A DNA stretch of 64,000 bases from Convolutriloba macropyga. Taxonomy: Eukaryota. The stretch spans positions 31,434,001-31,498,000 of the forward strand of contig NC_134472.1 of NCBI RefSeq assembly GCF_964194025.1, written 5' to 3'. Under the pieces are notes generated by a model. That model saw nothing but the letters and a program-made list of their open reading frames with translations. It searched no databases and was not told the DNA's origin. Positions within the stretch are counted from its first letter, which is position 1, and every line of letters starts with the position of its first letter. Position numbers and translations under genes: made by a program. This document shows positions 9,518-58,800 of this stretch, piece after piece.

Positions 9518-9922
<405 letters not shown>

Positions 9923-23253: not shown

Positions 23254-23291
23254 TTTCTTCCCTGAAGGTGAGATATTATTATAAGTTTGTT

Positions 23292-24061
23292 GGATCTATT
23301 GTTTCGCCCCCTCCCCAGTAGTTTATGCCGCCAATGGTTTGTTATGGTTTGTTATACAGCACGTAAAAAAATATCTTGTGAGGGGTCGTAAAAGTTATAT
23401 GCCCACTATGCTGGTCGGCCGAAACAGAAAAGCTCCAGCTTGCTTCATAGCTAAAATGGCTCAATCTCTGGGTCTTTTCCATTATGTCCCCCCTCCCATT
23501 ATGGTATATTTGCCATGATTAGGAGGGGGGCTATAGGTTAACTGACCACTGATCGGGGGGGGGGGGGCTATAATGGAAAAAACCCATCTTTAAGTGAAAA
23601 CGGGACTGATGGCAAAAAAGTATCGCAGAACAAGTATTGAAACGTCTGCAAAATTATATGCTAGAATGTTAGGAACCCCAGCAGACAGAAGTTTTGAGTC
23701 ACAAAGTTTTTGAAAGAAACAATCTGCAAGCAGTTCCTTTTGACAAAGGCACCTGATTAAACAATATATGAAAAAGTATCATTAATTAAGTAATTACAGC
23801 ACCAAAAGCCCCCTCCAAATGCATTAAACATAAACCGACTCATGTCGGAAAAGTTTCTCTCCAATGACAAGCGGCGCAATTTAATTCAGGGGCTGTAGCC
23901 TAGATAAATTTTTCTGGATTTTTCCCCATCTCAGTGGGCGCATAGTATTTGCACCCCCAGACGCACGTGCCATTTTTTTAGATAATGGTTTACTATGTGA
24001 TGGCACGTGCTCTGTAACTGGGGGGCGCATAACGTACTGGGGGTACAAACGGAAAAGATCC
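23292..24061. mobile_element. MITE bounded by GGATCT...AGATCC imperfect TIRs, with a nested small palindromic element at 23470-23585
   Basis: Left end ggatctattgtttcgccccctccccagtagtttatgc...agcacgt; right end acgtgct...gcataacgtactgggggtacaaacggaaaagatcc. No clear TSD. Confidence 0.65.
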
Positions 24062-29400: not shown

Positions 29401-31070
29401 CTAACTTGAAAAAAATTGCAAGCTTTATAAAGTTCCTCAACTTTTTGATAATCGAAATTTGAAATTTAATCCATCGCCAAAAAAATTTTCTAGTAAGATA
29501 ATTTTCAAACATTAAAGAACGTTTTTGATCCCTGGGGCTAAAAAAATCTGAATAATGACAACTAATGTCAAAAAATTTTTTTTAAAAAAGCAGGTTCTGT
29601 CAAAAAAATGCTAAAATCGGTAATGTTAATTTGTTGAAAACCATTCAATTTCAACTAGCAACTTTGTAGTAACCTATTATCAAACCCGTAGAGGAGGCTT
29701 TTTGACACTAAAGGCTGAAAAGTAATAAAAAGGCAAAAACTATAAGAAAGTTTGATTCGTGATAGTATATTTTTTTAAAAAAAACCATTATATCTTGAAA
29801 CAATGCAATAATTTATTATCAAACCTTAGAGCAGGTTCCTTAGCTATTGAGGCCATAAGTCTGAGAAATTTCAAAGAAGAATGAAAAAATTGCAAGTTCT
29901 ATAAAACAAATTGCTGAAAATTGTGATTTTAAAAAACTGAAAACTGAACCATGGCCAAAAAAAATTTTCAGTAACTTAATGTCAATCTCTAAAGGAGTTT
30001 TTCCGACACCTGAGGATGAAAAAACCTGAATAATCACAAAAAATTTCAAAAAATGGAAGTTTTGTGAAAAAAATAGTAAAACTCGCGATGTTAAAAAATT
30101 CCAAACCATTCAATTACCCATAGAAAAAATGCGGTAACCTATTAGTGAAGCCTAGAGGAGTTCCATTGGCTCTTGAGGCCCGACAATCCTAAAAAACGAC
30201 AAAAATTTTCAAAAAGCTAGTAAAAAAATCGCAGGTTTTTTAAAAAATAATTGCTAAAGCTTGTGCTTTTAAAAATTGAAAACCAATCCATGGCCAAATA
30301 AAAATTTTCAGTGACGCACAGTCAAACTCTAAAGGATGTATAGGTTTATTGACCCTTGGGGCTGAAAAACCTGAATAATGACAAAATTTTTTTAAAAAAT
30401 TGAAAAAATTGCAGTTTTTGTCCAAAAAAGCTAAAATTCGTGATGTTAAAATGTTGAAAACCGTTCCATTACCACTATTAGCTATGAAGTATCCTAATAT
30501 CAAAATTTAGAGAAGTTTCCTAGGCTCTTGAGCTTGGAGAAACCTAAAAAATGACAAAAATTTTCAATTGACTTGGAAAAATGGCAAGTTTAGCAAAGTT
30601 GCTCAACTATGGGATATTCAAAATTTGAAAACAAATCAATCGCCAATAAAAACTTTCTAGTAACTTATTGTCAAACACTAAAGGACGTTTTTGGCACGTG
30701 AGGATGAAAAAACCTGAATAACGAAAAAATGTCAAAAATTAAAAAAAAATTGCAGGATTTGTCAAACAAATGCTGGAATTGATAACGTAAAATTTTGGAA
30801 AAACTTTCGATTACCACTAGCAACATTGCAGTAACCTATTATCAAAACCCTAGAAAATATTCTTCGACACCAAGGGCTGAAAAAAAATCAAGATGGCAAA
30901 AATCTTAAGAATGCTTGATTCCTGATACTAAAATTTTAAAAACATTCCATTAGTTCTAGAAACTATGCAATAACCTATTATCAAACCCTAGAGCAGATTC
31001 CTAAGCTTTTAAGGCCATAGGTCTGAAAAATTTCAAAAAATGAAAAAATTGCAGGTTCTATAAAACAGTA
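26468..31070. repeat. Complex satellite: two ~750-bp tandem units followed by degenerate ~140-190-bp monomers arranged in a ~1.15-kb higher-order repeat
   Basis: cggctact(a/g)cataatt at ~26469 and ~27220. Recurring aaaaccattccattac and atcaaaccctagaggag motifs. Landmark (g/t)ttgattc(g/c)tgata recurs at ~28604, ~29751 and ~30913. Confidence 0.88.
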
Positions 31071-36299: not shown

Positions 36300-39200
36300 C
36301 TGTAATGTATGCAAACCTTTAGAAATTAATACTAAATCTTTAATAATTTTACTCCATTTTGATTTTGTTAAAATTTTCTCCACATTTTCTAAAAAATATC
36401 AAGTTGTTTCTCATCAACTATTGTGAAGAAATTGCATTCTGTATAAGCAATCAATTTCACAATTTTTTCATCATTAGATTTTCTGAAGACAATTTTTTCG
36501 ACGATCCCAGTTATTTGATTTTTGTTTACTCACATGCAATTTTAGGTTCAATTTTCCTATAATTGAATTTTTTGTTGTCTTCCTTTGCTTCTCATTCATC
36601 TCTTTTACAGTTGTTCAAGATTATCCGTACTAGTTGGCAGAAAAAAGTTATACCAAAAGTTTTACTGAAAATGTTTGATGCTCTCCACTTGCGACTATCA
36701 GTAGTAGTTGGAGAGCTGCCTCTTTTTCAGATTTTGCCAAATTGCCGTCAGGTTTCCAATATTTGTGAACAAAATAATTGATTAAGAAGTTTAGCATCAT
36801 TGATATTGGCCCGATAAGAATAGACTTTTTCCAGTTGTGTAATTGTGTATTTTTTTGACTGACACTGTCCGGATTGTTTGCAAATCTCGTAATATTTGTT
36901 CTACGACTTCATTTCGTTCGTCAAATGAGAGTCTTTGATACACAGGAAGACGTGCCATTTTAAAATGAGTTTACTCAATAAAATGTTAACATGCATTTAC
37001 TATTGTTGCCATATGAAGCTAATTGTCAATCGCATGTATTTTAGCAATCAAAAACTTGAGTGGGTCAGTAATACCTATGTCAATACTGTTGCCTGTCACT
37101 TTCTAACCCAAAAATATGTCCGCTCAAAATTCAGGAAATGTTGCCTGAATTTTCATTCAACACTCAAAAGGGATTTTCTATAGTGATGCCAAATTTTTCC
37201 GGGTTATTGGATCATTTTCTCTCATTCTTTTTTTTTGCTGACTGAGCTACATATAGGTAGTTGAAATGAATTGTATATTGAAGAGCTGGCCCGCGAGTCC
37301 TTTTGTTAGCCAATGGAACGTGTATAGCTTTGTAGAGATTTAGAACTGTTGCATCTGAAATCATTGGGAATATCAATGTTTTCCACAATATCCCCGTGTT
37401 CAGGTATTTCCGCTTTATCATATGCTAACAGCGGATTTGTTGACATCGTAGGTGATAATCGTTTGTTTGTAAGTTTTTGCAAACTGACTACTATTTCAAT
37501 AATTTTTCAAGCACTCTTCATGAAAGTAGTTCAGTTCGTACTTAATTTTTGACCTTTGTAAATACGGGACTAAAAAATGTTAGCCTGTAGCTAAAAACTG
37601 CTGGAAAGTATGAACTGATTTCACTTAACAGAGCAGATGACAGTACCATTAAATTGGTTTGCACTTGTAATACTTGGTCAAGGGTCTAGACGAGTCGATT
37701 GCAAATCTTCCTTTTTTTGAAGTTTTTAATATCAAGGTAAATGTTCCATTGAAAAACTCTGGCTTTTTTGGGATGCAATAGTTTTTGTGTTGAAAATTGT
37801 CCACATTTTCTGAGCGATGAATGACATTGCACATATTATCTTTGTTTTTCCTTTAATTTTAAATAATCGTCTATTGTATTTTCCATTTGATTCAACGCAA
37901 AATCACTGTTTTCTCTGTTTTGATTTCCCCTCCGCAAAAATAAAAGTTGATACCCAATGAGCAATCATTTGCCGAACATAGAGTGGCTGTTTTCAGGGCT
38001 GCAAATGCGATCATGGCTGAATGTTTTTGTCTAGACATTACTTTTTCTGTAAGTTTATTTTGCTCTCCAAGTGTTTTGTAAATTAGGGCATTTATTTTTA
38101 ACATTTTCACTTGAATTATTGAACGCGTGTGTGTGAATTATTGTTTGCAAATCTCGTAATATCGGTTCTACGACTTCATTTCGTTCGTCAAATGAGAGTC
38201 TTTGATACACAGGAAGATGTGCCATTTTAAAATGAGTTTACTCAATAAAATGTTAACCTGCATTTACTATTGTTGCCATATGAAGCTAATTGTCAATCGC
38301 ATGTATTTTAGCAATCAAAAACTTGAGTGGGTCAGTAATACCTATGTCAATACTGTTGCCTGTCACTTTCTAACCCAAAAATATGTCCGCTCAAAATTCA
38401 GGAAATGTTGCTTGAATTTTCATGCAACACTCAAAAGGGATTTTCTATAATGGAGCCAATTTTTTCCGGGTTAATGGATCGTTTTCTCTCATTCTGATCA
38501 AACACAGATTGAAGTTAGAGGTTGCGATGTAATGATATATTTGCCTTTGCCAGTGTTTCGAGCCTTTTCCTCGACGGCAGCTTCATAGATCTTCTTTCAC
38601 ACTTCCGGCAAGCACTGAAAGGACTGCCTAAAAAAGGGATACCAAAACAATTATCACAAGCAGTTTAAAACTAGAAGCCATTATACCAAATTGGAGAAAT
38701 TGCTTGAATCTACGCAACTGTCAATAAAATTTTTCGATACAAGAACAATTTTTTTTATTGTTGACTGAGCTACATATAGGTAGTTTAATTAAATTGTATA
38801 TTGAAGAGCTTGCCCTTGAGTCCTTTTGTTAGGCATTGGAACGTGTATAGCTTTGTAGAGATTTAGAACTGTTGCATCTGAAATCATTGGGAATATCAAT
38901 CTTTTCCACAATATCCACGTGTGCAAGCGTTTCCGCCTCATCATATGCTAACAGCGGATTTGTTGACATCGTAGGTGATAATTGTTTGTTTGTAAGTTTC
39001 TGCAAACTGACTACTATTTCAACATTTTTTCAAACACTCTTCATAAAAGTAGTTCAGTTCGTACTAATTTTTTGACCATTGTAAATATGGGACTAAAAAA
39101 TGTTAGCCTGTAGCTAAAAATTGCTGGAAAGTATGAACTGATTTCACTTAACAGAGCAGATGACAGTACCATTCAATTCGTTTGCACTTGTAACACTTGG

Positions 39201-39950
39201 TCATGGGTCTAGACGAGTCGATTGCAAATCTTCCTTTTTTTGAAGTTTTTGATATCAAGGTAAATGTTCCATTGAAAAATTTTTTGGGATGCAATAGTTT
39301 TGTGTTGAAAATTGTCCACATTTTTTGAGCGATGAATGACATTGCACATTTTATCTTTGTTTTTCCTTTAATTTTAAATAATCGTCTATTGTATTTTCCA
39401 TTTGATTCAACGCAAAATCACTGTTTTCTCTGTGTTGATTTGCCCCTCCGCAAAAATAAAAGTTGATACCCAATGAGCAATCATTTGCCGAACATAGAGT
39501 GGCTGTTTTCAGGGCTGCAAATGCGATCATGGCAGAACGTTTTTGTCTAGACATTACTTTTTCTGTAAGTTTATTTTGCTCTCCAAGTGTTTTGTAAATT
39601 AGGTCATTTATTTTTAACATTTTCAATTGAATTATTGAACGCGTGTCATTTTCAGTTAGCTCTTTTCACTGTAGGATCACATCTGCGTTCTGATTGACAT
39701 CACAAATTGTTCGAAAGCCTCAATAGGGCTTAGGTGTGCTGGCAAGCGGCCAAACTCAGAAATTTTTAATTGTTCGGTCTATATTTATAATCAATTTTAT
39801 CTTAAAAATATAATGAGTTTTTTCAATCTCACCTGTTTCGCAAAGATAGATTGATCTACTGTTTCAACCATATTTGGGTTAATCTTGTGTAGTAGATTCC
39901 TCTGTTTCAATTAGAATCTCTACATAATTGTTGACAAAAATCTCATTAGT
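36300..39950 (-). pseudogene. Decayed class I (F-type) viral envelope-like gene with internal tandem duplication
   Basis: Furin-like site RQKR followed by hydrophobic SAMIAFAAL..CS..CSLG..FCGG. Downstream LIFPMISDATVLNLYKAIHVP and EKARNTGKGKYIITS remnants. Many frameshifts. Confidence 0.6.
36873..39646. repeat. Direct tandem duplication (36873-38130 and 38140-39646)
   Basis: Near-identical ORF-track peptides occur in both copies. The left copy lacks ~255 bp present at ~38495-38750. Confidence 0.97.
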
Positions 39951-40118
39951 GAGCTCTGACATAAATTGTTTTACTTTTAACAATGTATAGACGTTTCTGA
40001 TACTCACTGACGTTTTGACTGATGACGTTTCACAAGCCGCGTTCCTAATTTTTTCAGAAAATTTTTGTTTTTTGAACTATATATTTTGAATATTTTGTTA
40101 TGCTAATATCATTTATGT

Positions 40119-40425
40119 AGTAAGCCAGAACCTAAGTGGGCTACTTTTACAGACTTCTGGTTTAAAGAGCTAGGGCTACTTATTTTTGCACGCGAAATAG
40201 GCTTACCTATATCTCTCAGACTAACAGACTCTGTAAAACAAAGAAGGTATATTTCAATTATAACGATGTACAAAAGAGTTCACACCGGAGTCAGAGGTAT
40301 ACACATTGTGCAACTACTCTAATAGACTGACTACAGTCGGCAGAGTTACTGCTATATAAAAAAGAATAGTGTCTTCTTAGTCTCTGATTGGTTGGCGGAG
40401 CACATCCAGTATTTCTAATGCTACA
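40119..40425 (-). repeat. 3' LTR
   Basis: Direct repeat of 55496-55802. The left boundary is uncertain by a few bp and no exact TSD was found. Confidence 0.92.
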
Positions 40426-40439
40426 TCCATCCGGGGTTT

Positions 40440-42930
40440 AGAGTTTTAAATCCGGATCTGTGAGTTGTATCGGAAATACGTCAGATGAGTGATCCTCGTT
40501 GTAGATGGAACTGAAGAAGAGCCGTGTTGTCGTGGCAGTGAAGTTGTGACCTGTGCCGTCGTCTAGAGTCCCTGTTAGTAGAGTGTTGACTAATGTCGTC
40601 AGTAAGTTATCCACTTCAGATGTGGTGCCAGTTACAGGGTGTGCTGGCCAATAACGTCAGTCCTGTCGAGCGTACCCAACTGTCTCTCACCGTTATGTAG
40701 TGAGGATTTACTCCCAGTTGGAGGATCGCTTTTAGTCTGTAGTCTCTGTCTAGTTGAACAAGGTGATTTCTGTTCATCTCCATCTGGTTCCGGGTTTTAC
40801 CGGTCAGATTTAACAGCTTACCTTCAGTTGAAAATCAATCTTTTAGCTACTGTGTGAGTTACTGGTTCTCTTAAACTTTTTGTGAGGTTTAGTGCCTGCT
40901 GAGTAAGCTCTGACCGGAGAAAAAAGAAAAGAACAGAACCTAATCTTCTTTTTAATTGTGGCAAAGAAGAAAAGAAAAAAAAGATTAAATACAGTGAAAA
41001 TAAAAAGAAACATAGAAATAAAGAAAAGATAACTTAACATGAGTTTGAGAACAGTGAGCCTCAAGTTTTGTGGGTCAGTGAGTACCAGTGGTAGGACTGT
41101 GGCTTACGTCTGGAACTCGAATTCGAAATCAAGGGCTCGGTTGTCCGGATCCCTGAAGAATTCAAGAAAATCCTTGTCTCGTGCAAGAAAAGCGGCAAGC
41201 GCACGTGTGTAGAGATCGATGTTGATGTGGGGTTGCAACGCTAGAAGGTGGTTGAGGATCTGTGTTCCATCTGGTGTTGGTTCCAGAATGGCCAGCTTGT
41301 CCACCATCCAGTCCCTGTAGGGGAGATTGATTGTGTGTCCGTACATGCGCGTTGTTGCGCCTCGCTCTACACGCTAAAAGTATTCAATGAGGACAAGGAT
41401 CGGGCGATGCGTTTTCGCGTAAAATGGGACAAACAAGAAATAATTTTTAATAGGGTCGAAGTTGCGGAGTGTTTCTTCGCAGTAAGTGGGATTAATTGTA
41501 TAGCTATAGTTCCATTAGTAGGTTGACGCGAGTTTAGTGTTGGCATACTGGAGGCGTGAATTCATTTGAACAAGAGCGTTAGTCCAATGAAAGTGGTGTT
41601 GGACGAAGAGATAATTGCGTATTGTGTGTAGCATATTTGTCTTGTTGACTTTGTGAGTTTGTTTGTTTAAATCCATTTAGTTTTTTATGCAAAAAACCAA
41701 ACTAAAGATAGAGGGATTCGTATTTTTGGTACAAGCGGTAGGGGGTGACATCTTTCGTGAAAAGTGTTTTCAGATAGTTGTTCTGACAATCTGCTAGTGC
41801 AACGAAATATTTGGATAGGTGCCAAAAACGCTCTGTGAAGCGGGGAAAAATTGTAAATTGAAGGCACTCCAGTGGGAGTTCCCTAAACCGTCCTGCTTCT
41901 ACATACTCCTTTCTCAACTGTCACAATGAGAATGAGCTTGCCGTTGGTTTCAACGTGTGGCGGAGTGAAAACATAGTTAATCCTCTTGGGGAAATAAACA
42001 CCCTGATCCCTGTTGATGCCCAGAGAGTTTGTGAATTGTAGAAATTTAAATTGTGGACCCGTTGCTTTGTGTAGCACTCCTTGTGTAGGGGCGAAGGGGT
42101 TGACTAGACCCATTGAAAATGGGGTCTGTGGGCCTCTGGAAGGGCTGGCGATGTACCGTGCAAGTGATTGTGAGGCCTGAATTGGGGAAGAGGGGACCGA
42201 GTAGATCTCATGCTTCATAGTCCTGGGCCGTCTCTTTGGGTAAGGATCCGTGCAAAAATAATTTTCGGTTGATGTCGGCCGATCATAAGGAGGGGTTGGG
42301 GGAAGTCAGTTGAGCTCAATTTGTGGGATTGCTGGTCCATAACTGTGCACTGGTGGAGTGTTAGCTACGAATGACAATGGTATGGGCGTCACTGGTGGTG
42401 GGTAGGTCATTGGCTGGCTACGCGGTCTCGAATTCGGCTTGATTAGGCTCAATTGGGGACCACTGTTTTGGGTGTTCAGCGGCCCGATTGTTACGCAGCG
42501 ACATCATCAGCCCAGGGAGAGCTTTATGGGGGTTGAGTTGGTAGCTGTGGCGCCAAAATGACGGCTGTGATGCCAGTGAAAATAGTTGTTGTGACTTTGG
42601 CACCGGCTGGGAGGCTTGGAACAAAAGTTATTGTGACGAACTTGTGGATACCATTTGTGTTGGCGGGCTCCTGTTGCTCTCGATGTATGAATGTAATTCC
42701 CCTGACAACGAAAAAGAAGTGGCGGGTGAAGGCAACGTATTCACCGGCGCATGAGTTGCTGAGTCCACGAACTGTGGCTATGGAGAAGCTTGGGCCAACG
42801 TGAAGAGGGTCAGCGTTTGCATCTCGCACACAAGTTCTGGTACGGGGGGAGGCAGCACCAGAGGCGTAAGAGTGGAAGGCAGGATGTCGTCGACATCCAG
42901 CATTATGAGGTCGTAAGCCGTAGGGTCGAC
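40440..42930 (-). pseudogene. 3' accessory ORF block (GC-richer, Pro/Thr-rich, unassigned)
   Basis: Fragments 42524-42829, 41883-42218, 41702-41917 and 41104-41346, preceded by a strong splice acceptor. Confidence 0.55.
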
Positions 42931-43299
42931 ATTTGGTGGGATGGGTGACCCTCCCTCTTGTTTGCCAGGAGTGAGAGTTGCGGTGTCGCTAAAATAAATT
43001 AAAAAGTTAAATTTGAGTATTTGATAAGTTTGAGATCAGTTCTTATGGGATTTCCTGACACTCAGGAACATTCTCAAAAAATCCTCAGAAAATGATATTG
43101 AACGTTAGCATTTACGTTTTCTAGACTGAAAAGTGTGTTAATGCAACGACTGAAAATCAAGATTTCGATGTGATTCTATCGGTAACTCAAAGCATTCATT
43201 TATAAATGTGGGGAGAGTAGAGGCCTTGTGCTTTTTGGAGTTATTGTCTACTGGAGAGGAAAATTTTTTATAAAAATTCTCAAACTTTCAGCGAAATAG

Positions 43300-45593
43300 A
43301 TTCAATCAATTTTGAGAATTCGAAGTGCTAATATCGACAGAGTGCTCACGTCTTGTCTCAGGCGATGGTGGGTTTTTTGTGTAGCGTCTGATTGTATTAC
43401 ATGAAAGATTGTCCGTGAGAATACTCCAAGAAATTCAGAAGTGATAATCTCAGCTAATGTGATATGCGGACTTGAGAGTGATTTGAGATTGTATGCGTTA
43501 AATGCGCTACAAAATAGTGCAAATAGGCATTTTTAAAAACTAAATACAGTCCATATATTAGCTATTTCTTTCAATAAGTACCAAGTATATCCAAAGATTC
43601 CGATGAAGGATTTTTTTCAATAGTTGCCGTTGATTAAATCACGCCAACCGAGACGGCAAAGTGTATTTTTTTTCTTAATAAAGAATTTGTTAAAACAATT
43701 GTTGTAACGACTTTGTAACTGTAAGAATTGTGCTTGTAATTGTCTGCAAAATTAACTGCTTGTGCTAATTCAAATTGCTCGGCGCCGTCATCTACTAATT
43801 GTTAAATTTATTTTTTTCTATTGAATTTGTCCAGTCTCTTTGACTATATATGCCAAGTTGTTCTGCAGTAAAAACCGCGTGGGTGAAGCGGTTTTCAGCT
43901 TCGTCAGGGGTGAAATTTTCAACGGGGTTTTGAGCTCTAAATGGGTAAGGCGTTAAGCGGAATGACTCATCACCATCTGGATCGAGTAATATTTGTTGAT
44001 CAAAATTTCAAGCTCTACATAGTGTTTTAATAGACCAAGGAAAAGTCTTGCGTGTTACTTGATCTACAAATTCAAGTTTATTTTGATAAAATATGGTAAT
44101 AAGTTCCAAAGATTGGTTTTCTAGATCATAAAGTGGCGAAGAGATAGTTCTACCTTGAAAAAGTGAAAGCACATCTGATATTATTAGCGTAGCGAATGTA
44201 TTTCGCTGTCCTGTGATAAAATATCCAACAAGTGAAAGTTTTTGTGTTAACAGAAAAGGGGCGGTCTGTATTAGATCTCTTTATAGAGTTTTTTATAATA
44301 AACTGATAGATTTTTGTAGTACAATTAAAATTAAACTCTGCTGTTCATATAGTCGAAATTAGCGTCAATCTGTACATTAGGATTAACAGCACCGAACCTA
44401 TTTTGTTTTTATTAAAAAGATAGTATTTTTCAGTTTTACGGTATATTGGAAATTCTTGTGGAAACCTCGTTACGGATATCTGCTTTAGTGTACCGTGTTA
44501 TTGAAGGTGCTTTATTTAGTACGGCTAAGTGTACGTCCTTAAATTTTGTGAAGGCTTTGCAGTGACAAAATTAAAACCTTCGTGTTTTTTGTATAAAAAC
44601 ATCTTGATATTGTGTTCCGTATCAAAGGTGATCCTCATTGCATATATAAATAGGTTTAGTGAGTACTTCATAAAGAGAGAATGCTAATTCATCATAGAGA
44701 TGGTTTTTTTGAAAACAACTATTAAACCTGTGTGCGTTTCATTATTTGCTAGTGTTTCATTAAAATGGAGTTTTTGAAATTTAATCATGCGTGCGTGAGA
44801 TCCACCAACCTCAATACTTCGAAAAAGAATATTTGGTTCCCAAATGAATTTGGCTTTAATAGCGTGATTAGGAGGGTAATAGCCTCTCAAAAGATCACAT
44901 TTATTACGTGTTTTATCATAATGGACACTTTCTGATTTAACTTCCAAACTAAGCGTGATGTTAGTTAATTGAAGTAACCATCTTAGTGTGTTATATGATA
45001 TATAACATAATTCCAAGTTTGAAGGCAAATGGTCGGTGGCGATCCAGCTGAAAACGGCCTTGTTTGGCTTCAGTGTTCACTTGCCAGCGTGGGTCGTTAA
45101 GTACATCAAATTGTATCATCTGTGCGTGTTAGTGATGTTTACTCACGAAACCAACGCGAGCAAAATCTCTACGAGCTTCAATTTCTGTGGGGAAGGAAGT
45201 TCTTTCCATATCGTTAACCTACCAATTATCGTGATCAAACCGGAAGCCCCTCCTAAGTGAGGTTTTGTGGTACAAATTTCTGTCGCAAAGTTATGCATAT
45301 ATAGCGTACGCGCGTACTTGAAGTGTTCGAATTTGTGAGAAGATAAAAACTTGCGCAGGGAGTATCTGGAAGTCTGCCGGTTTGATCTTACATTGGCCAA
45401 TCTTATTGAGTTTATAATACTGCATAATTGTGATATGCTGTGGTGAGCAATCATAGTGTGTTACAATTAAATCCTGAAATCCTGATTTGGGAGTAGAAAC
45501 GTTGCAATTATCAACCTTAATTGTTTGTTTTATGGGAAGTAAGAATAAAAAGAATAAATTAATTAGAAATAAGATCAAATTTGTAATAGTCAT
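43300..45593 (-). pseudogene. env: env: chuvirus/herpes gB-like (class III) glycoprotein, disrupted
   Basis: Signal peptide, then HYDCS...YKLNKIGQC, CDLLRGY....IWEP, ICNED..YGTQY.D.FI, ELITIFYQNKLEFVDQVTRK..C, QLGIYS. A hydrophobic remnant lies near 43500. Confidence 0.7.
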
Positions 45594-45699
45594 GTGTAAG
45601 AGAGTCCAGAGTGTGGGATGTAGAGGACCAAAAATCCTGCAGTGTTTTGTGTTTATCTATCAAATTTAAAGTGAATTTCTTGACAAATAAAGGATGAGG

Positions 45700-47676
45700 G
45701 ATTTGTTTTTACTCTAATTATAGCCGGAGCAGCAGCGTGTGGGTGAAAAATTAGTTTATCTTGTTCGACTACTATCTCAACAGAGAAATTAATCTTAGAT
45801 TGTTCAAGCATATCGTGTGCTCGTTGTGTTTTTACTGGTGTAATCTTGTATGATTTAGAGATTCGTTGTTTTGCGCAATTGTATAATTGTTCAAGGTTAT
45901 TATGATCTTCAAAAAGGCAGGTGGAAGAACTATAATTTTTGGATCTTTTTTAAATGCTTAAGTTGGGTAAGTTTGAGTGGCGTCAGGTTTTTTTTCCGAT
46001 ACATTTGAGAGAATGTTGGTCTGGATCTGGTGTGGGTGAATTTGAACTAAGAGTATTTATAGTTGGAGTACCCTGGATACTAAATGGTAGTGAGCTTTGA
46101 AAAGAAAGAGACGAATTGACTATATTGAATGAGTGAGTCCGGTGAGCTTGTGAAAGCAAACTTTCAATATTAGATACTGGTCCTTGTGGCGGATAAAAAG
46201 GATTATTTGCAATTTGTGAGGGAGTAAGTGACAAAAAATGTGAACTAATTGGATCAGAATTAAAGATGTCAGAGACATGACTGGTTTCTTGCGGAGCAGC
46301 TGCTATTGTAGAAACAAAATGAAGTGGCTGTGGCAATTCAGAACTACTAGTTTTATCTGTTAGCAAAATTAATCGGTTGAGTCAAAAATTGTGTTTTATT
46401 GGAATAATCAAGCAGTTCTAGTTCTTGTGCTCGTAGTGGAGCAGGTATGAATGGTGTTTGTTGTTGTAGAGTTGCGTTTATAAGAAAACTTGAGTATGGC
46501 AGAAAAGTTTGTGTATTTTTTTGTTGTTGTTGTGGTGTTTGCGCTTGTTGTATTTGCGTTTGACTTTGAGAGGTGGATATCGGATTACTAACTGAGGGGT
46601 AAAAAGGGGGGGGGTTCCTGTAGGACGAGGTCTATCTGTAGTTGTGGCAATAGTTTTGACTGAGTATGGATGTTCTTCTTTTTATTAAATAGTTTAAATG
46701 ATGACTTTTTAGGGATGGATTGTTTGGTAGTGTCACTGTACGAGCAACTTGGTGATTCTGAGACGGAGGTAGCTCTTGGGTTAGTATCGGGTTGTTGATT
46801 AGAGTACGCAATTTTGACGTTAATCGTTGGTCCAGAGTGGGGCAAAAATTACCATAGAATATCTTATAATGAGTGAAAGATGGAATAACAATTATTAATA
46901 AATTTATAGTAGGAATAATAAATTGGATTGCTGCAACGGTTGAATCTGGAGGGAGGACATTGTGTTGATAGATGAGATCTAAAAACTCAACAATAAAAAC
47001 TGTTAACAACTCTTCGAGCAAATGGTGTAATTTTTTTGAGAAATAATAGACAAATATTGAAAGGGTTGGTGATTCTGTTCTGTTTTTTTTAGAGTTGTTG
47101 GATTGTTCATCAAACATAAAAAGTTCTTCGTAAGAAGCTGGGACAGCATCCACTTTCAAAGTGTATACAATATTGTTATAGAGAAATTCACATAATTTGG
47201 GTGTTGATTGTGGAGGAAAAAGTGGAAGATAGAAGAGAGCAATATGTTTGTTGTTAAAGTCCCTTATATAAAAGACCCATTAACAACAAGTGTGTGGATA
47301 TAGTTGCTGGTCTAGGTTATAGAAAATATCTTGCAAACGTATTTGTTTTGTTTTAATATTTTGAATATACCATAAAGTATCAGCGTATGGGGTTGGTTCT
47401 ACAAAATAACACTTCAAGTCTGTGTTGTGAAGTAATTTGAATACTGTTTGTTCTATGAAGATCAGTTTGACTTTCAGTGCTGTGAGACTGAGAGTTGTGG
47501 ATTTTATGGAGGTGTACGCTGCTGTGAGCGAGTCTGTTCAATTTGTCCGTCTGTGAGCTATTTGATACTGCTTTTTTGTAGAGCTTGTTTGGACTAAGAA
47601 CTGTGCTGTGAGACAGTTCTGACTTTTCGAGAAAGAAAGTGAAAATTCCGGAAACAGAATTTTTTTTAGGAAACAT
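45700..47676 (-). pseudogene. Unassigned ORF block between integrase and env (globular part followed by Pro/Ser/Gln-rich part)
   Basis: Consecutive minus-strand fragments 47380-47676, 46632-47159, 46588-46845 and 45983-46366. Confidence 0.5.
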
Positions 47677-48293
47677 AGAAATTTTTATCTAAGTTAAGAA
47701 ATGAGATAGAGTGAAAAAGCGAGAGAGAAGTTGATAGAGTGAAGTTAGAATTTTATATTCAAAAAATAAGACAGAGAAGAAAGAAACATTTGAGTTGCAA
47801 ACAGGGTGGTCTGTGAAGTGACTTTAGACAATGCAGTTTAGCCTGACTACTACTTTTCTTAGGGGAGAAAAAACTTACCGAATCATACCTCGTTAAATTA
47901 TTCAGATTGGAGAATTATTCGCAGGCCGATCTGTGGGTAGGCTACTAACTTAAGTTTTGGTTTATTTACTTTCTTTTATTGTCGTCGGGAATGGCCTATA
48001 ATTCCCTATTTTTCATTTTCTGATGGAAGTTTATTGTGTTTCTGCCAGGGTAGCAGGTGGAAAGATAGTCCTCATGCTTTGTTCGCCTTATGGAGGGTCT
48101 TTGTTATTTTTTCCAAGGAAAGGTATTGTGAAGAAAATGAGAAGGGTGAAAGAACTATTCGAATTATCCCACTCGTATAAAAAACTGGGAAATTATAATT
48201 TTAGTCTATTTCTATACGGGGTGTTTAGTGTGTTATGCTAATTTGCATTGGGCTAAGGAGAGCGAGAGGCAATTCTGTGTGTTGCAGTAGTGG

Positions 48294-48325
48294 TATATAC
48301 ATACATACATATATATATATATATT

Positions 48326-48350
<25 letters not shown>
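48294..48350. repeat. (TA)n microsatellite
   Basis: Seen directly in the sequence. Confidence 0.95.
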
Positions 48351-48358
<8 letters not shown>

Positions 48359-48649
48359 ATATATGTATGTGTGTTTGAGAACTCTGCGTTGTTCTTGAAG
48401 CCCAAATTTTTGACTGTGATATGAAGGCTCTGTAATCTTTTGTCGGTTGTTTACGTGAACGATTGTCTCTAGTATTGTAGTTTTTCGAACTTTTTTCGGG
48501 TATTTCAGACAAACTGTAAGATGGCGGGGGAAAGTTCATTATTTGATGGTATGTCTGGGTTGTTTAGACTAAACGAGACAGATTTCGACTTTGTGATAGC
48601 GGGTTTTTTAGGGTGAAGTCGTAAAAATGAGTGGTCGGAAAAGTATTTT

Positions 48650-51600
48650 TCCTTCTGTTCTTGAATGAAGAGTTCTTTAGGGTAATATTAGTTACTTCGG
48701 TGATGGGTTATTTGTTTACCTGAAAAGTCCTCTAGTTTATATGTGACTAAAGTGGGAGTATCAATTATTTTGGAGGGTCCGACCTTTTGTAGTTGGATCT
48801 TCCTTGAAGTACCAATTTGTGGATTTTTATTTACATTAGTAACATAACTGTTAATTTTAAGTGGTTGAACCGTTCCGAACCGGCAATTTATGAACGTGCC
48901 TAAATGTTTATTCCCATTTAAATAAATTTGGAATTCGTTATACACTTCTGAGTGTATTTCCTCGCGATTTAGAAACCATTGTGCAAAGGTTCCTTCTCTT
49001 TTTTAATTTAAACTTTTTAATTTGGCGATGATGTTTAAGATGATTGATTTCTGTATGTTTTGTGAAGGAGTGGCACGGTGAGTTTTGTGAAGTCCGGGAG
49101 TTGCCAAAGCTATCTCTAGTTGAAGATAGAGTAAACATTTTTGGCTTTTTGGTGTTATGTCAAAGACGAGTTCATAAGGTGAAAGGTTCATGTTTGTTCT
49201 AATTTGTGAGTTAAATTCGAAGGGAAATGTTTTCAGCTTTTAAGACCATGTGTCGTACTGTGAATTTAAAACTGTGCATAAAAATGTATTTGGTTGGCGA
49301 TTGCCTTTTTTCTACTAGTCCATTGGACCGTGGTGCACTCAGTGTGCGTGGTTTAAATTGTACGTTGTATATGGGGCAAAATTGTGTAATTTCGCCCTTA
49401 ATAAAATGATTTCCATTATCAGTTACTAGAATATCAGGTATTCCGAATATAACTATCCAATTATCGAATAGTAACTTTAATGCTTTTGCTGCATCATTTT
49501 TCGGATTAGGACGGAGGACAACATTGTGTGTGAATGCATCAACAATTACATATACATAAGAGTTTCCGTATGAAGGTGGAGAGATTGCGCCTTTCGGGTC
49601 TAGAGAAATACAGTGGTTGAATTAAGGTGAAACTTTTTAAAATGGCTGTTGTGGTACCATAATAAGATTTGGCATGGTTAAGCTGGTTTGGCAATTTAAG
49701 CAATCATGTGTAAAGATTGCTATCCATGTTTTGATATTTGGAAAAAAATATGTTTCTGTTATTGTAGCATAGGTTTTGTCACGGTTGGTATGACCTGAAA
49801 TATCATGTGAATGTGCGACATGCAATACAGTTAGTAGAAAGGAAAGTGGTAAAAATATTTTATGTGATATAAAATAATGATTAGTTCCGTTTATGCTTAG
49901 ATTCGGAAAACGTCTATAATAGTGTAGCAGTCCCTTGATTGCTCGGACTGTTAACGAAGGGAGAGAGGAGCGGTTTTTGTTTTTTTTTGCAAAAAAGAAG
50001 TTGTCTTAAAACAGAATACTTTTGTTGAGTTTCTTGTAAAAATGTATCGGTTACTTCTGTCTGTTTGTCAAAGAAATAACTAAATATTTCTGGTGACTTA
50101 GGTATGAAATCATCCATTGCTGGGAGTGAAAATTTGATGCTATTTATTGAATCTGCATCATTTGCCTTTTGAGTATCTGGTGTGAATGGTTCTGTTTCAT
50201 TTGTATTCAGTGTAACATCTGTTTGTTTTACAATAGGATACGTTTCTAAGTGTGAATTGCCTTGTTTCAATTGTTGTTTTTTGTGATAATGGACAAGTTC
50301 TAGAGGTTGTGCTTTTGTTTTATATTCGTGGTATGAAAGGGGAAGATACAAATTGTTCTCTGGTTGTACTTTAAAATAGTCTTCTTTGATTTGTAGGTAT
50401 ATTGGAAAGTGTGGTGATTCTACAGCAATGTCTGTAGTTACTGTGTTATTGTATTCTTTTGATAAAGCATAGTGGCACTGCATCGGTTGAGTTTGTGGAT
50501 TATGTGTCATTAAGATTTTTATTGTATCGGGAGTTTCTACTATCCGTAGACGATGCACGTTTTGTGTTGTCGTTGAAAGTCAACGACCTAATATATCCGG
50601 AAGTGAAAGGTTATTGCCTTCCGTCCGAACTATAAGTAAGGAAATTTCATATTAGGAAATTTTATAAATATTAACTGGAATTCAAAAATTTTGAGATTTG
50701 GATTGCTCTTTTTATATAAATGAAACGAGCATGGGTTTGTGATCAAAATACAGGATAATATTGTGTTGTGACTCTTGGATAAAAAAATTCATAATCAGAG
50801 AGTGCGTAAATTACTGCAAAACGTTCACCAAGAAAATAAGCGAGAGATTGGGGAAACTAGTTCCAATTTTCCAAATTGTTTGTTCCAAATTGTTTTCCAA
50901 GTGCCGCTCCGATGCTATAGTTTGATGCATAACGTGGAATATAAAAGGGATTATCTGAACTAAGGAACGCTAGGCGTAGAGTGCCATCTGTAATTTTCTT
51001 TTTTTACTCTATCAAATGTTTCAGAGTCCGTTTAAAATTTACCGTATCTCGAAGATGAAGGTAGAAAGTTCTCAATTTAAATTGTAGGTTATAAAAGTTT
51101 TGAGATAAAGTTGAGAAAACCAACATATTTTTGTATTTCTTTTTTATTTTTTGGTGGTTTTAGTTTTAAGAATCCGTCTATTTTTGAAAAAGAAGGATTT
51201 ATTTGAAAGATTTAAGATTACACTTTAAGAATTTCGTTTTTGAGAATATTGTGATATTGTTCAAGTGTTTCCAACATTGTTTCTGTTATAGTGTCTTGAA
51301 CAAAAACATCTTCAAGATATTTGATAATTTAGTTTTTGCGGAATAGTGATTTAAATATACTACTTATAAAGGATGAGAAGACGGCTGGGCCAATAGAGAT
51401 ACCATATAATGAGCCTTTACGTCAAAATTATTGTTCTGCGATGACGAAATTAGTAAGTAGTTGTAACGGTTTGTCTAGCGGCTTTTGATTATATGTTCTA
51501 TTCATATCGGATAAAGAGAAAACTGGGCCTTTGATGCGTGTAAGTATTATTTGTATCAGCCCTATTGGCCAATTACATTTGGTTTTGTCAATCATTGTGT

Positions 51601-52850
51601 TCATCTGACGAGCGTCCAAGACAATTTTAAGTGACTCCCTTTTTAGAGTATAATTACAGGATTAATAAAGTTGTTCCCTGCAGTGAGAGAATCCGTATTT
51701 ACAGCTGCAGCAATATCTAAATGTGTCGACATGTCGAGTAAATGTTATACTCTTTCCTGTAATTGCAGAGGTATACGAGTAACTCGTTGCTTTTTAAATA
51801 CTGCTTCTGCCTTCAAAGAGAGATTTAATTCTACTTTGATTTTTCCTACATCAAATTTAGATGTAGCATAGCAATTTTTATATCTTATTAAAAGTTGTGC
51901 TAATTGTTCAAATTGTGTTTGTTATAGTCTAAAGTGTTCAAAATTGGAGATTGTGAGAAAAATACTGTCTGTTTTTGTGAACGTAGAGATATCAGATAGT
52001 ATGTGGAACGTTTTCTGTTGTGCTTTGTATTCAGGTGCTTGTTGCTTGGTGAGATTTAAGCAATAGAATTTTCTTTAGTGTTTCTGATGTAACGTATGTA
52101 ACGTAATTTAAAGTATAGGCATCCTTGAAATCTCTGAGTTCATTGACATGGTATTTTGTTGTATGAAACTCTTTGATTGAAAAATCTTGTTGCGCGTATC
52201 CAATCAATCAATTAACGAGTGTTAGTGGGTGATCTAAAGATTTTTGTCTAAGAATTTGAATGAACGATTGGTAAGAATATTCGAGTTTACTGATATCCAT
52301 TATAGAAAAACACATATTTCTATGGTGGTATAACTGAGAAATCAGATTTAAAAATTATACTTCCATTTGCATATTTGTTTTCACATTCGTATGCAGTAAG
52401 TGAATAAATTAGGATTTTGTGCTAAAAAATTGGAAAAAGTATGAGTGATCACCATCAATAGGAAATAATCGTGAATAGCATGGAGGTGATTCTGTTGAGC
52501 AATCATAGATATCATAGAAGGATTCAACATATTGTTCTAAAAATTCTGTTCCTAAATTAAAAAATTTTGGGTTTGAAACGTGAAAGGTGAGTTTTAAATT
52601 TAAATTAAGAGAAATCCTGTGTTCCGTTACCTCTGGTTAAAAAATAAGCTTTACTGATCCATTTGATTGTAATTTAGTGTTATTTGCTGCAATGCTGATG
52701 CTTTCAATTGTAATTCGTGGTACTCTCTGATTTCATTCCAAGTGTCTTTATCTAATACATTAAGCATTAAATGTAGCCCCCGAGTCTATTAACAAATCAA
52801 TTCCAAGTTGTGGTGGAGAAATTGTATTTGTAAAGTCGGGTGTCTGTTGT
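48650..52850 (-). pseudogene. pol: pol: protease, RT, RNase H, integrase (disrupted)
   Basis: LLIDSGAT at ~52786; YGISIGPAVF and YLEDVF at 51319; RNase H (Y)ASNYSIGAAL and DHKP; HHCC HSHDISGH...CLNCQ; IPDILVTDNG; GP-motif VGPSKII. Confidence 0.92.
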
Positions 52851-52999
52851 GTATACATTGTAAGTTGTTGTAACCAAGTATTACTTTCACACGATGCAGA
52901 ACGGATATATTCTTCTATGAGAGTATCTCATTTTTCCTGACAATTAAAATATACGTCTTGTGTATCTTAATTTAGTTCAAAAAGTAAATAATTGAATTG

Positions 53000-55303
53000 T
53001 TGTTCTAGAAGTTGTGCTTCTGAAACACTTTGTGTTTCCATATGTTCTATGTTGGACGTTGTATCATCTGTTTGTTCTATACGGTTGTTCTAGAGGTCTG
53101 GTCTAGAAGTGAATTAATATAATTTCTAAGGCGATTACGTAGAAGAGTCGTTGTGAACGATTACCATCTCTATTATAATTAGGTGATTGTGGTCTAGAGT
53201 TACTAGAGTAATTGTTGTTATTATTAAAGTTGGGCTTTTTCTGGGAATTTAGTTGTCTTGGGTAGGTTGAATCTGAACTACTTGGTGGCTTAAAGTAATC
53301 GTTTCCATAATAAGGTTTTGAGTTTGTAATTGATGATTTATTAGGACTTATGTGTCGAGAAGTGTCGCGATTGTCTCTACTGTTGCTCCTAGAGCGATAG
53401 GGTCATGGTAGTGTTTTAGCAGTCATATTCTTTGATGTGACTTGTCTGTTCGGGAGATTTTGATTCCCTTTCGTTACTTGATTGAAAGGTTGTTTTGAAA
53501 ACTTAGGTGTATCAATTGGTTTTGCATATTATTTGTCAGGGCAAATCGAAATACTTTGTCCTGATCATGAACATTTTTTACTAAATTTAAGGAAGAGTGG
53601 TTTTCTTTTAAACTTTGGATTATTTGAGCACTTGTGTAGTACTACATTGATTCTGGACTTTGTGAGTGGAGTTTGAGTGGAATTTGTGTTTATTTTTTTG
53701 TCAATCTATGTGTGTTCCAGTGATATCTTCCAGATGTATTTTGTCCACTAATTGATCAAAAGGAATCTGTGGTTCCAATGCAGTTAATTTGAGACATGCG
53801 ATCTTTTTAAGGGCTATTCGAACTAATTGCGAATCAAGTGTTTTGACAAGTGCGTCATTCATTTGTGTATTTCTCATATCAGGAGCATTTTTAACAAATG
53901 CTTTTTGAGCAGTTTCTTCAATTCTAAGTGCTAATGTTTTTATCTGTTCTCGAGAGGCACGCGTTATGCTTTCTAATAGTAATTTCGTATGTTTTTGCGA
54001 ATGTTGGTTATCAAAGGTCTTTTGAAATTCTCGGCACGAACCTTGCCATTCTTCCATAATCTCTAATGGCAAATGTGAATAGCATTGTTGTTGGTCCGAA
54101 TTATGTGTCAGATCAGTTGAATTCACAGGTTGTCTCTGATTTTCCTAAATCTTTTTGTTGCTAGGAGTGTCATTTACGGTAGCATTAGTGTTTATATTAT
54201 TGTTGTTAGTGTTATTGTGTTTTTCAAGGTCAATTAATGAGAGATTGTTTACAGTATCTGATGACAAAAGTGTTTCATCTTCTAATAGTCTGGAATTTAC
54301 ATCTATTTCTGTGGTTTTGTGTCTCTTGATCGTGAAACGACTATAGTCTCTATATTATCTGTAGGTTATTCTTCAAGAAATGTATTAGTGTTTTCTGGAA
54401 TGTTTGTAAAATTGACTGCTTGTTTTTCGGCGTTTTTTTTTAGTTTTAAAATTATTGTTGTCAACTGTTAGTTTTTGAATGATTCCTGATGAAACTTCTG
54501 TAATACTTTTAAAATTTTCAGGAATTCAATTTGAATCATAAATATTGTGTAGTGTTTCCGGCAAATTATCCATCAAGTGTGCGTACGTGTCGCCTATTAG
54601 TTTTGTAGCCTGGAAAATATGTTTTACTAAGCTTTTCCAAATTCTGAATGAGTACCAGGACAAAAGCGCGAGAAAATCTTTTATTTCCTCTTGCGGTAAA
54701 TCTGCGTCTTTTGCAGAGCTTATGTCTGTTTTTAGAAGGTGAGTGAAACCGTCTATTTTTTGTCTAGCAATTTTTTATGCTCGTTTTCTTTTCGTGATTG
54801 TAAAGCGGCGGTATTAAGTGCTGGCGCTAGGCGCTTTAGAAATTCGAATGACAGTTGGTTAAACACAGTTGAAGGTTGTAATTCTGTCTAAACTCCGTTG
54901 AGAAGTTCAAATAATGTGTATGGTAGTGGCTTAAATAATGTAAATCATATATGCATGGAACATAAGTTGTGTTTCATAGATCAGAGATAAAAAGAATTGA
55001 GCCCTTTGTGAGTTGAGCTCCATAAATTTCGATTAAGTGTGAGGGGAAAGCTATTCCTAATATTTGTGAATCTTTATCTGGTAAAGTAAGAAGAGGCTGC
55101 TAATCTATTGCAAAAAAATTGATTTTAGGTTGTTTTGCTGTGTTTAAAAGTAAATTTAATTCGTCTTGGTGATGATGTTGTGCAACTTTAAATGGTAAGA
55201 TTTCGTATATAAGAGTTTTGTTCGGTTGTGTAAGAACAGTTAATTGTAATTTATTGGAATGTGGGTCCGATTTTGATGACGTTTGGCCAGTGTGACGGCT
55301 CAT
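53000..55303 (-). pseudogene. gag: gag region with a long N-terminal extension or separate upstream ORF
   Basis: Capsid-like EQIKTLALRIEETAQKAF segment (53701-54126), degenerate zinc knuckle (S)KKCS*SGQSISIC near 53585-53540, Arg/Ser/Asn-rich tail. Disrupted ORF begins at 55303. Confidence 0.7.
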
Positions 55304-55480
55304 TTTGTTAATACTAGTGAAATTATTTTATTTTCTGAACTATTTGTAGGGTTGTGTTGCCTGTTTTCCTAATTTTAAACGTAAGAAAATTATGAAATTA
55401 TATAAACTAGTTGTAAGTTTCTTTCTCAACAGAGAATAGCTTGTTTTTCGTGAGTTCTTTTTACGGTTAGAGTTTGTTAA

Positions 55481-55496
55481 CTCACTGTTCGCACCA
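55481..55496 (-). promoter_or_regulatory. Primer-binding site TGGTGCGAACAG(TGAG)
   Basis: TGG-initiated sequence abutting the 5' LTR. The cognate tRNA was not identified. Confidence 0.75.
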
Positions 55497-55802
55497 GTTT
55501 AGGCAGACCCGAAGTGGGTTCCTTTTACAACTTTAAGGTATGAATAGCTAGGGATACTGTTTTTGCGCGCGAAGTAGGCTTACTTATATTTCTCACACTA
55601 AACGAATCTGTAAAACACTGAAGGTATACTTCAATTATAATGATGTACAAAAGAGTTTACACTGGAGTCAGAGGTATACACATTGTGCAACTACTCTAAT
55701 AGACTGACTAGAGTCAGTAGAGTTACTGCTATATGAAAGAAAATAGTGTGTTCTCAAACTCTGATTGGTTGGAGGAGCACATCCAGTATTTGTAATGCTA
55801 CA
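55496..55802 (-). repeat. 5' LTR
   Basis: Starts TGTAGCATT on the minus strand. Has a CCAAT box and TATA-like motif. About 85% identical by eye to 40119-40425. Confidence 0.92.
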
Positions 55803-58800
55803 ATAGCTTTGGACAATTTTTGTCCAGTCAAAAAATAGTATGACTAACTTTAAGAATTCTTCATTATATTGATTTTTAACATTTTAATACTATTAGCAAA
55901 TTTGAAATGTTTTTGTCCATACTCTCAGTTTCTGTATTTGAAAATCCTAACTGGTTATTCAAATTTAACAGAGCAGACTAGAATTCAATTTTCCAAAATT
56001 TTCACAAAAAATTATTTTTTTCAATGGCCCAAAATTTAGATCCAAAACCGTTCAATACCAACCCTTAATTGTGCAACTCAGAACTTGGCTTTCAATTTTT
56101 GGGAACAAATCATAGCAAAACATGATCAAATGGGGTCTTCTAGTTTGCTGCGACACGCTTCGGACAACAATCAATCAACTGACGAAAATCACATGCATAA
56201 ACTATATTCATATATTTAGAAGTTAGAGAAGTTGAATTATGGAGATCAATGTTCATTTCTCTCATATAAAAACAAAAATCGCGAGTGTAAACGCTACCCA
56301 ACATTGAGTCTAATCTGCAAAAAAAATCTGGTTTATTGATAGAAGATTAATTTCGTAAAGCTGAGTTTCGATGTTGACAGAGTTTCGATGTCCAGATGAT
56401 AGACGGGTAAATCCGCTTTGAATAAACTCGTCCATAGTCACCACCTTATATACATTACTCAAAACATAGGATGCAAAAACAACGCAGTCTGACTCACCAG
56501 GGGGAACGATATCCGAAGCAAAAATCCTGACAGGGTGAAAAATTTAAGAGAGAGTCACTACCCAACCGTTTTTCACGTAAGCAAATCAGAGTTCGTTTTG
56601 CGTTTCAGCTCTCAATGAGTAGGGCGAGTTCATCAAGTTTATTTGATCTATAGTTTAAATGTAACACCCAAGTATTTGCTCCAAGATTCTCTGTCAAAGT
56701 GGCCGATAAAATTTTGATTTTTTAAATAAATTTTGGTTCATACTACTAAAAGCATTGTTTATCAGATTATGATCCCATTTCTGCGATTAATAAAAATTAT
56801 CAGAATTTATGATTATCTTATTAAACGCAGCGGTTTTTGTCTTTCACTAAAAAGTCGTTTACATCGGCTTTTTCGCCCAAGGTTTTAAATATTCTTGTAC
56901 GGGGTGAAGTAATGACCTCGTTTTTGTATATATCCGTATTTTCAGATGGATGATCTTTCAACTTCATATGCTTCATCGGATAGACATTTTGTTTCTTGTC
57001 ACAGTTTACTATAATAGGCCTTCGACGAAAGACTTTTGAAGGAAGATGCTGAAGCACATTTTTATCGTCTCTTCCTACTTCAGCTCCTTTGCCACCCACA
57101 GCCTGCAACGGATCTTCAAAGGGATCAACCTTTTCAGTATCAACAATTCCAAACACTCAGATGCGTCGGTGATGAACCTGTTCGAGTGCATCAGCTTCGA
57201 GCGAGCGAGAATTCGTAGGTAGAGTTGAATCCGCTTTCTTCTTCGGAGTTTCAGTTTTTTATCGGGACAACATCTACAAAGAAAAGAGCTCGAGAAAAAC
57301 GGATCATGGAATCTTTGGGAACGCCAGTTCTGTCCCGGCAATGAATCTGTTGCCGTCGGGTCTTGGTCCAGTACACTCAATTTCATGCTTACTTCCTTCA
57401 GAATTTACAGACTTAGAAGCTGACTTTACCGAAAAAGGTCATTTTTCTCCTTTTTTCACTGTTCTCTATAAGTTCACCAATACTGATAAAAGATACCAAC
57501 TCTAGTTTACTTGATATGAACGCTCTGATTAGTGACGGTACTTACCGAAGATTGCAAACAGCGAGGGCACAACCTACCCTACCCGGCTTTAAGATTGTGC
57601 TTAGGCGCACAGAAATGGAACACTTCTTTGTCCCCTGCTTTCGATGCTGGAGATTAAATACCATATAACATCAACAAATATGAAATTAAAATGAATCAGG
57701 ATCATAAAGTCTCCAAAATACCCAAGGTCATAAAGTCTACTGTTATTGATACCTACTGAAATTAGTGTTATCTTTAATTTCAGAAGTTGTATACCAATGA
57801 AGCATAAGAAGATCATACAGGATGTTGCACACCACAAGTTTAGAAGAACAAGTAAGTCACGACTTTTCAATGGCAAATTAGAGAAAATTTTGATCAAAAA
57901 ATGAATATACATAGGGTTATGAGACGCAATTTTTCTCAAAAATTTTGGAAAATAGGGGAAAAATTGCAATTGCAGAACACCTGCAATATGCCAGGCAAAC
58001 TTTCAACGTTTTTACAAAGTCTATGGTATTCCTACAACATAGCTGGAACATCAGATTTCGATAGAAGAAAAAAATTAGGAGGACCATGTGCTGCTATCAA
58101 TCTAATTTTTCATACCCGAGAACTTTGTTCACATCTAAATAGCTTTTTGATTTCTATCTTAAATTCCCACGTTTTATACGCGATTAATTTTAGTGGGACA
58201 AACTCCACTAATTTTGGGAAAAATTGCCGAGAATGATTTTCCAGAGTGACAACAACTGTCTGCGTGTTGCGGAGCCTTACAGAAATTTGAATACAAAATT
58301 AAATACGAATGACTTGAGACAGAAAACACACAACTGAAAAAACCCTTCACATATGTCTGCGCAAGCCCACCATCAACACTCGAGACGATTAGCAAAGCCG
58401 AGAATTAACTCTAGATTAGTGCCAAAAATATGTTGCCTCTAACAAAATTTTTTAGAGCATGTTTTTGAATTTTTTAAAAGTTCTCCTAAAACAAAAACCT
58501 TTGAGTTCAAAATTTTTTAGACTTCCATTCAAAACTTCTAATTGTTTCAAAATAGTTAAAATAAAACAAAAACTTAATTAAAAAATTATTTAATTAACAT
58601 TGCACTATTTAACACACATATGGTCCACATGATTCAAGCAATCGCAAACAGTTTCAGTTTTTATATTGACTGTTTTTTATTTGTAGTCTCTCCACTTTAA
58701 AACCTATAATTATTTTATTACATCCTTCCTAGGCATTCTAGAAGATATCCCAAAAATCAAAAGAAGCAAAGTGAGATTCAAATGACCCACCATTTTCCCC

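Follow-up and report, generated by a model that had tools for sequence, protein, structure and literature searches.

The region under study is very probably the broken gB-type envelope gene (env) of a decayed Ty3/gypsy element, which belongs to a gene-rich family in which env was likely inherited together with pol from an ancient progenitor and likely served as the membrane-fusion protein of the particle. The element occupies 15.7 kb (40121-55802) of the window, by which we mean the whole stretch of 64,000 nucleotides that was analysed, and its features are collected in Table 1.

Table 1. Features of the decayed LTR element, in coordinates of the window
Feature	Position	Strand	Remarks
5' LTR, 304 nt	55499..55802	-	ends TG...AA in the window copy (family TG...TA)
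Primer binding site	55481..55496	-	complementary to 3' end of host tRNA-Met(CAT), 15/16
Broken gag-pol, Ty3/gypsy type	48390..55303	-	gag, PR, RT, RNase H and integrase; tblastn map
Remains of ORF a (~130 aa)	47103..47393	-	69% identical to ORF a in copy C3
Remains of ORF b	46523..47000	-	overlaps ORF c; similar ORFs in two other families
Broken ORF c	45575..46812	-	Met-free; its end overlaps the start of env
Broken gB-type class III env	43007..45593	-	signal peptide, ectodomain (12 conserved Cys), membrane segment and tail at the C-terminus
Broken ORF e	41104..43017	-	~600 aa in other copies
3' LTR	40121..40425	-	LTR pair comparison
4-bp target-site duplication	40117..40120	.	3/4 bases match the mate at 55803-55806

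Architecture of the element and its family

The two LTRs of the window element are 86% identical (K2P 0.15). For the family survey ten loci of genome G000 were read, picked for long open frames, and two of the surveyed copies were 16.5-16.6 kb long with 100%-identical LTRs of 328 nt, each being broken in some gene. The gene order in those two copies is gag-pol, a spacer of ~800 nt, ORFs a, b and c, env and ORF e, and all of these genes could be mapped onto the window copy by tblastn. In total, LTRs that are 100% identical were found in three copies in or beside the family (C3, C16 and one of the 769-aa env family), and the family has therefore moved recently; the window copy itself is dead.

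The primer site matches tRNA-Met(CAT) at 16 of 16 positions in two younger copies, the corresponding tRNA gene family gave 94 pattern matches in genome G000, and an exact 4-bp target-site duplication flanks six of the seven other copies with resolved ends. LTRs, a tRNA primer site and a short target-site duplication are what is expected of Ty3/gypsy, with termini that are TG..TA and not TG..CA. The domain order of gag-pol, PR-RT-RH-IN with RT_RNaseH_2 and Integrase_H2C2, is likewise that of Ty3/gypsy (Metaviridae) elements: Pfam matches to rve and Integrase_H2C2 were obtained in the window itself, and those to RVT_1 and RT_RNaseH_2 in the pol of copy L022. The integrase is arranged as H2C2-rve-SH3, and the gag knuckle, which was read in copy L026, is CX2CX4HX4C.

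Several other features were recorded in the genome and in the rest of the window. The tRNA-Met genes matching the primer site lie in tandem arrays (G000 C1 77.67-77.77 Mb and C4 55.03-55.13 Mb), and env fragments are tandemly duplicated in decayed copies (G000 C11 17.36-17.38 Mb, C9 65.41 Mb and C4 66.85 Mb). The window also holds host genes in long open frames (9518-23295; ATP synthase c, a DFP-domain protein, GrpE and CLPTM1), a decayed non-LTR retrotransposon with endonuclease and RT matches (262-3108), and satellite-like arrays with units of ~170 nt and 70-75 nt together with duplicated blocks (26655-31037, 36873-39646 and 59588-60926). The duplicated blocks, of 200-300 nt and 91-98% identity, adjoin the 3' end of the element.

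The envelope gene of the window

The window gene opens with an ATG at 45593 on the minus strand and a hydrophobic stretch, MTITNLILFLINLFFLFLL, which is followed by THYDC..YYKLNKIGQC, RNKCDLLRGY..FIWEP and CNEDHL*YGTQYQDVFI and then by LELITIFYQNKLEFVDQVTRK..C and LGIYS. These motifs are split across three frames, and comparison with two other copies (71% nucleotide identity) revealed ~18-21 frame-changing indels and 15 stops. All of the motifs of the original prediction were found in the order it gave; of its span, 43300..45593, the start was correct and the far end was not, the gene reaching ~43007. Searched against genome G000, a 130-aa fragment of the window env gave 1292 candidates, with 150 scored matches at E <=2.7e-20, and the reading is therefore not due to chance. 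Copy L021 has a natural open env frame of 889 codons, which aligns along the window gene. A search of env for a furin-type site pattern found none.

Assignment of the envelope to class III

Three window env fragments, each scanned separately, matched no Pfam family. The env of copy L021 matched PF24664 (Monjiviricetes_fusion) with an E-value of 9e-14 and 50.8 bits against a cut-off of 27. An env search of 1.84 billion representatives returned 685 matches, and of the 23 distant ones that were scanned 21 likewise matched PF24664 (E <=0.01). Among 26 env rows, 12 ectodomain Cys are kept in nearly every covering row; the signal peptide and the C-terminal membrane segment were assigned by hydropathy and model helices.

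The fold was considered using an AlphaFold model, which was made on another copy and not on the window (pTM 0.44, mean pLDDT 64.5). In a Foldseek search of the PDB with this model, ranks 1-44 were all herpesvirus gB (best E 2.4e-10), followed by gp64 and a rhabdovirus glycoprotein, Chandipura G, and the VIA comparison gave a Z of 11.0 with 421 aligned and an rmsd of 15.6. The best match in BFVD (E 2.6e-24) was the G of Tacheng tick virus 4, which we take to be a chuvirus. These matches indicate a gB-like fold on a moderate model, with TM-scores that are low (0.2-0.37) and rmsd values that are high. Searching PDB chains with the env sequence gave no matches as a single protein and one non-significant match as a profile. 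No Pfam match to baculovirus or paramyxovirus F was obtained, and no F-type envelope was among the fold matches listed.

Taken together, the L021 profile match and the predicted model support a class III envelope of gB/chuvirus-like family and fold, as had been proposed from the sequence in place of an F-type env. The proposal of a chuviral donor did not fare as well: chu-like, qin-related and xinmo glycoproteins stand side by side among the top BFVD matches (E 2.6e-24 to 4e-21, 11-14% identity), and so no particular viral donor is supported.

Extra ORFs and selection

The cassette of extra ORFs, with a, b and c preceding env and e following it, is the apparent novelty of the family and looks new. 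ORF c consists of a low-complexity N-terminal part and a conserved C-terminal domain of 130 aa, and ORF e of a Pro/Ser-rich N-terminal part and a conserved C-terminal domain, the model of which (pLDDT 49.8) was too poor for a fold search. No match to ORFs a, b, c and e was found in Pfam, the PDB or the ESM Atlas, a result that does not itself show novelty or a lack of relatives. Motifs resembling PSAP/PPxY are present in ORF c or the env tail. Ten further G000 loci revealed a sister family in which ORFs c and e recur, with identities to the window's family of 41% for the c domain, 33-36% for the e domain and 29% for env. ORFs similar to b are present in two other families, and profiles of c and e found no homologues in the 898, 769, 828 and 754 families.

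Because the copies had been picked for open frames and dS was high, often near saturation, the dN/dS values (pairwise NG86) are rough: relative to the C3 copy they were 0.08-0.21 for env (eight pieces from five non-window copies), 0.05-0.12 for ORF c, 0.06-0.10 for ORF e, 0.12 for ORF a (one pair) and 0.5-0.7 for ORF b in the window's family, where b overlaps c; 0.04-0.38 for the window fragments; within the sister family they were 0.09 for gag-pol, 0.15 for b, 0.09 for c and 0.12 for env, with e saturated. These substitution ratios show purifying selection on ORFs a, c and e (0.04-0.12) and on env.

Additional ORFs were also observed in other env families. In the 898-aa env family (L124:9033-9985), three abutting look-alike ORFs of 104-110 aa run end to start just upstream of env, an arrangement that suggests stop-restart translation, and a Met-free ORF of 274-284 codons lies downstream of env. 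The pol of the same family shows a weak Macro-domain match between protease and RT (L124:392-6085; E 7e-4, 20 bits against a cut-off of 22). Arrays of short ORFs follow env at L139:2750-4603 and in the 754-aa env copy on C5 (L141), and contain Cys-rich RING-like ORFs with Pfam RING matches below the cut-off. In the 769-aa env family, an orphan ORF of 611 codons follows env (L133:2723-4555), and both of the full copies fetched carry LTRs that are 100% identical and a primer site for the same tRNA-Met.

A putative AUU start for ORF c

ORF c has no Met across 385-451 codons in both families, and its frame opens 5-11 codons upstream of an ATT whose -3 and +4 positions are A and G, which in the window places the putative AUU start at 46812-46810. 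The ATT is kept in all ten aligned copies (11 were examined) and, by exact pattern, in nine of ten sister copies; only 2 of 21 other Ile codons of ORF c are invariant. Within the 1.2 kb that precede the env AUG, all eight copies, drawn from three families and including the window, have one to four AUGs versus shuffled means of 7.0-12.5, and at most two of 200 shuffles were as low. Other segments along three elements were not depleted of AUGs, save two upstream segments of one sister copy (8 AUGs vs 18.7 and 6 vs 10.8). The Met-free ORF c, the near-invariant AUU in strong context and the AUG-poor 1.2 kb together point to leaky scanning, and on this pattern we lean towards a reading in which ORF c starts at the AUU and its AUG-poor frame is scanned through to the env AUG.

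It is also quite conceivable, if somewhat doubtful, that the same element expresses ORF c through a splice to an AUG exon upstream, a frameshift from b or reinitiation, and that env has its own spliced RNA, the AUG scarcity being a by-product. A donor-like GTAAG splice site in U5 was found by pattern search in five of six family LTRs, and this conserved AG|GTAAG, with an ATG upstream of it in the LTR, would suit splicing, but no conserved AG acceptor adjoins the ATT in the window's family. In that family ORF b overlaps c by ~390 nt and covers the AUU, so that frameshifting into c could occur there, although two Ile codons within the overlap vary. In the sister family, b ends ~800 nt before c and a frameshift from b into c is therefore not available; a short in-frame ORF that stops a few codons before c in that family speaks for the alternative.

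Polymerase and origin of the envelope

The RT of the element scored 104-108 bits on the gypsy profile and 1-5 bits on the BEL profile, and the RT frame of the window 44 and -2 bits, respectively, these profiles having been built from G000's own elements (26 distinct of 35 extracted rows). Its best PDB relative is Ty3 (E 1e-28), it nests among gypsy rows in the RT tree, and no match at E <=1 to the Pao protease, Peptidase_A17 (PF05380), was found in the element pol. The element RT is thus Gypsy and not BEL/Pao, an assignment made with gypsy references that were Pfam-picked G000 and database rows and not curated GyDB profiles, and for a long branch (1.8) that is liable to long-branch meeting. 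The original prediction was therefore right in calling the element Gypsy, and the grouping of the RT with BEL/Pao that would have counted against it was seen neither in the profiles nor in the RT tree.

A Pfam scan of genome G000 for gB-type env families gave 99 matches from 68 scored candidates, and ten env contexts were fetched: a gypsy RT lay upstream of env in nine of them, and no pol was seen in the remaining one. Seven sampled env-bearing lineages form one RT clade (SH-aLRT 100). In quick tree searches, with SH-aLRT only and seven rows having both genes, the env and RT trees both split lineages 881 and 1140/1146 from 769, 828, 754 and 898 and both pair 828 with 754; outside proteins fall among the G000 families in the env tree (4 changes). 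Because the two trees share their main split, env likely dates back to the base of the clade, and the seven lineages likely inherited it from their common ancestor. This view fits what the available part of PMC13524379 says on the age and spread of gB-type env.

The original prediction had instead proposed an independent capture by a Gypsy lineage. A fairly recent capture of a chuvirus glycoprotein of that kind, or its hand-over from a BEL/Pao element, would agree with the chuvirus or chu-like G proteins at the top of the fold matches, with the richness of genome G000 in BEL/Pao elements and with the capture of chuvirus-type glycoproteins by BEL/Pao, which the prediction had mentioned and which is in print (PMC7642597). 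We nevertheless consider it very unlikely, and independent capture is unsupported, since viral G is only 11-14% identical and the env and RT trees largely agree across seven lineages that share env within one RT clade. Qin-related and xinmo glycoproteins also come within a few orders of E of the top matches, the RT in nine of ten env contexts is gypsy, and scans of viral contigs with two env queries found no relative. Slightly less probable still is the placement of the element in a distinct group of retroelements close to Gypsy (Troyka, Odin or lokiretrovirus-like) and not in Metaviridae proper: a long RT stem, identity of at most ~33% to anything outside its clade, a length of 15.5-17.8 kb and numerous ORFs speak for it, but the RT nests among gypsy rows with Ty3 as its best PDB relative, and the TG start, 4-bp duplication and CX2CX4HX4C knuckle are unlike the CG..CG termini, 3-bp duplication and CX2CX8-10HX4C given for Troyka in the available part of PMC12440569, none of which the element has.

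Outside genome G000, a metagenome scan with a distant env query gave one short, weak locus. Two pol proteins, P0297 and P0304, are 65% identical to each other in RT-RNase H and 52% identical to the best G000 match, and the clade is therefore likely present in another genome too.

Proposed life cycle

The element would copy itself by tRNA-Met-primed reverse transcription and integration, and its 3' genes would be carried on a subgenomic RNA, which may arise by splicing at the U5 donor. Under the AUU-start reading, which we are inclined to prefer, some scanning ribosomes would initiate ORF c at the strong-context AUU and the rest would reach the env AUG. By analogy with Drosophila gypsy, putative Env trimers would probably let particles pass from somatic cells into the germ line. 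We propose, more tentatively, that these elements may constitute an undescribed clade of 'complex' Gypsy elements, in which a gB-type env sits among arrays of orphan genes and a polycistronic subgenomic RNA yields, by leaky scanning, an AUU-started protein in fixed ratio with Env; that protein would perhaps be matrix-like or a budding adaptor.

Comparison with known systems

The Anakin elements of mosquitoes, as described in the available part of PMC7642597, are BEL/Pao elements with a chuvirus glycoprotein inside their LTRs. The window element resembles them in having a chuvirus-like class III glycoprotein in that position and differs in its Gypsy RT and in the lack of a Peptidase_A17 match. 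The LTR elements of bdelloid rotifers with ORF3 types (PMC5408684) are similar in carrying additional captured ORFs; in the part of that source available, each of these is a lone ORF3 belonging to a known family (F-type env, GDSL or DEDDy), whereas the window's family has several orphan ORFs flanking a gB-type env.

For the expression of ORF c, the closest parallel is one of mechanism. According to the available part of PMC5902531, rice tungro bacilliform virus begins translation at an AUU, after which leaky scanning passes ORFs that are free of AUGs, and its ORFs I-II-III would be comparable, should our reading of ORF c hold, in the AUU start, the long AUG-poor stretch and the downstream AUG; it differs in being a plant pararetrovirus whose pregenomic RNA is translated with a shunt. 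No report of AUU-started leaky scanning in an LTR retrotransposon, or of a gene-rich cassette combined with such expression, was found in the CC-licensed PMC and bioRxiv literature.

The nearest relatives in print are the HSV/gB-type Ty3/gypsy errantiviruses of Chary and Hayashi (PMC13524379), with which the pairing of Gypsy and gB-type env is already published. That source describes the gB-type env of animal Gypsy elements as ancient and broadly distributed, with a frequency in animal Ty3/gypsy elements close to that of the F-type. With a Chuviridae-like glycoprotein of mosquito BEL/Pao as bait it found 114 gypsy elements, and it states that the cell entry of gB-only elements is unknown. The likeness extends to the Gypsy pol, the gag-pol-env order, the gB-type class III env with conserved Cys, multicopy recent insertions and an env that diverges with pol. 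The window clade differs in its length of 15.5-17.8 kb and its four extra ORFs; the primer-site 12-mer of the window's family is not in the element table, and the words accessory, leaky and splic- are absent from the text, of the part of PMC13524379 that was available. Its env starts 2.8 kb after pol in the window's family and 5.3-5.5 kb after pol in the sister family, distances that exceed the POL-ENV prefilter of 1000 nt in PMC13524379; this suggests that screens confined to a short distance between POL and ENV miss the members most like viruses. The clade has been recently active and keeps several orphan proteins beside env under strong selection, and these proteins are candidate fusion partners, budding adaptors or counter-defence factors.
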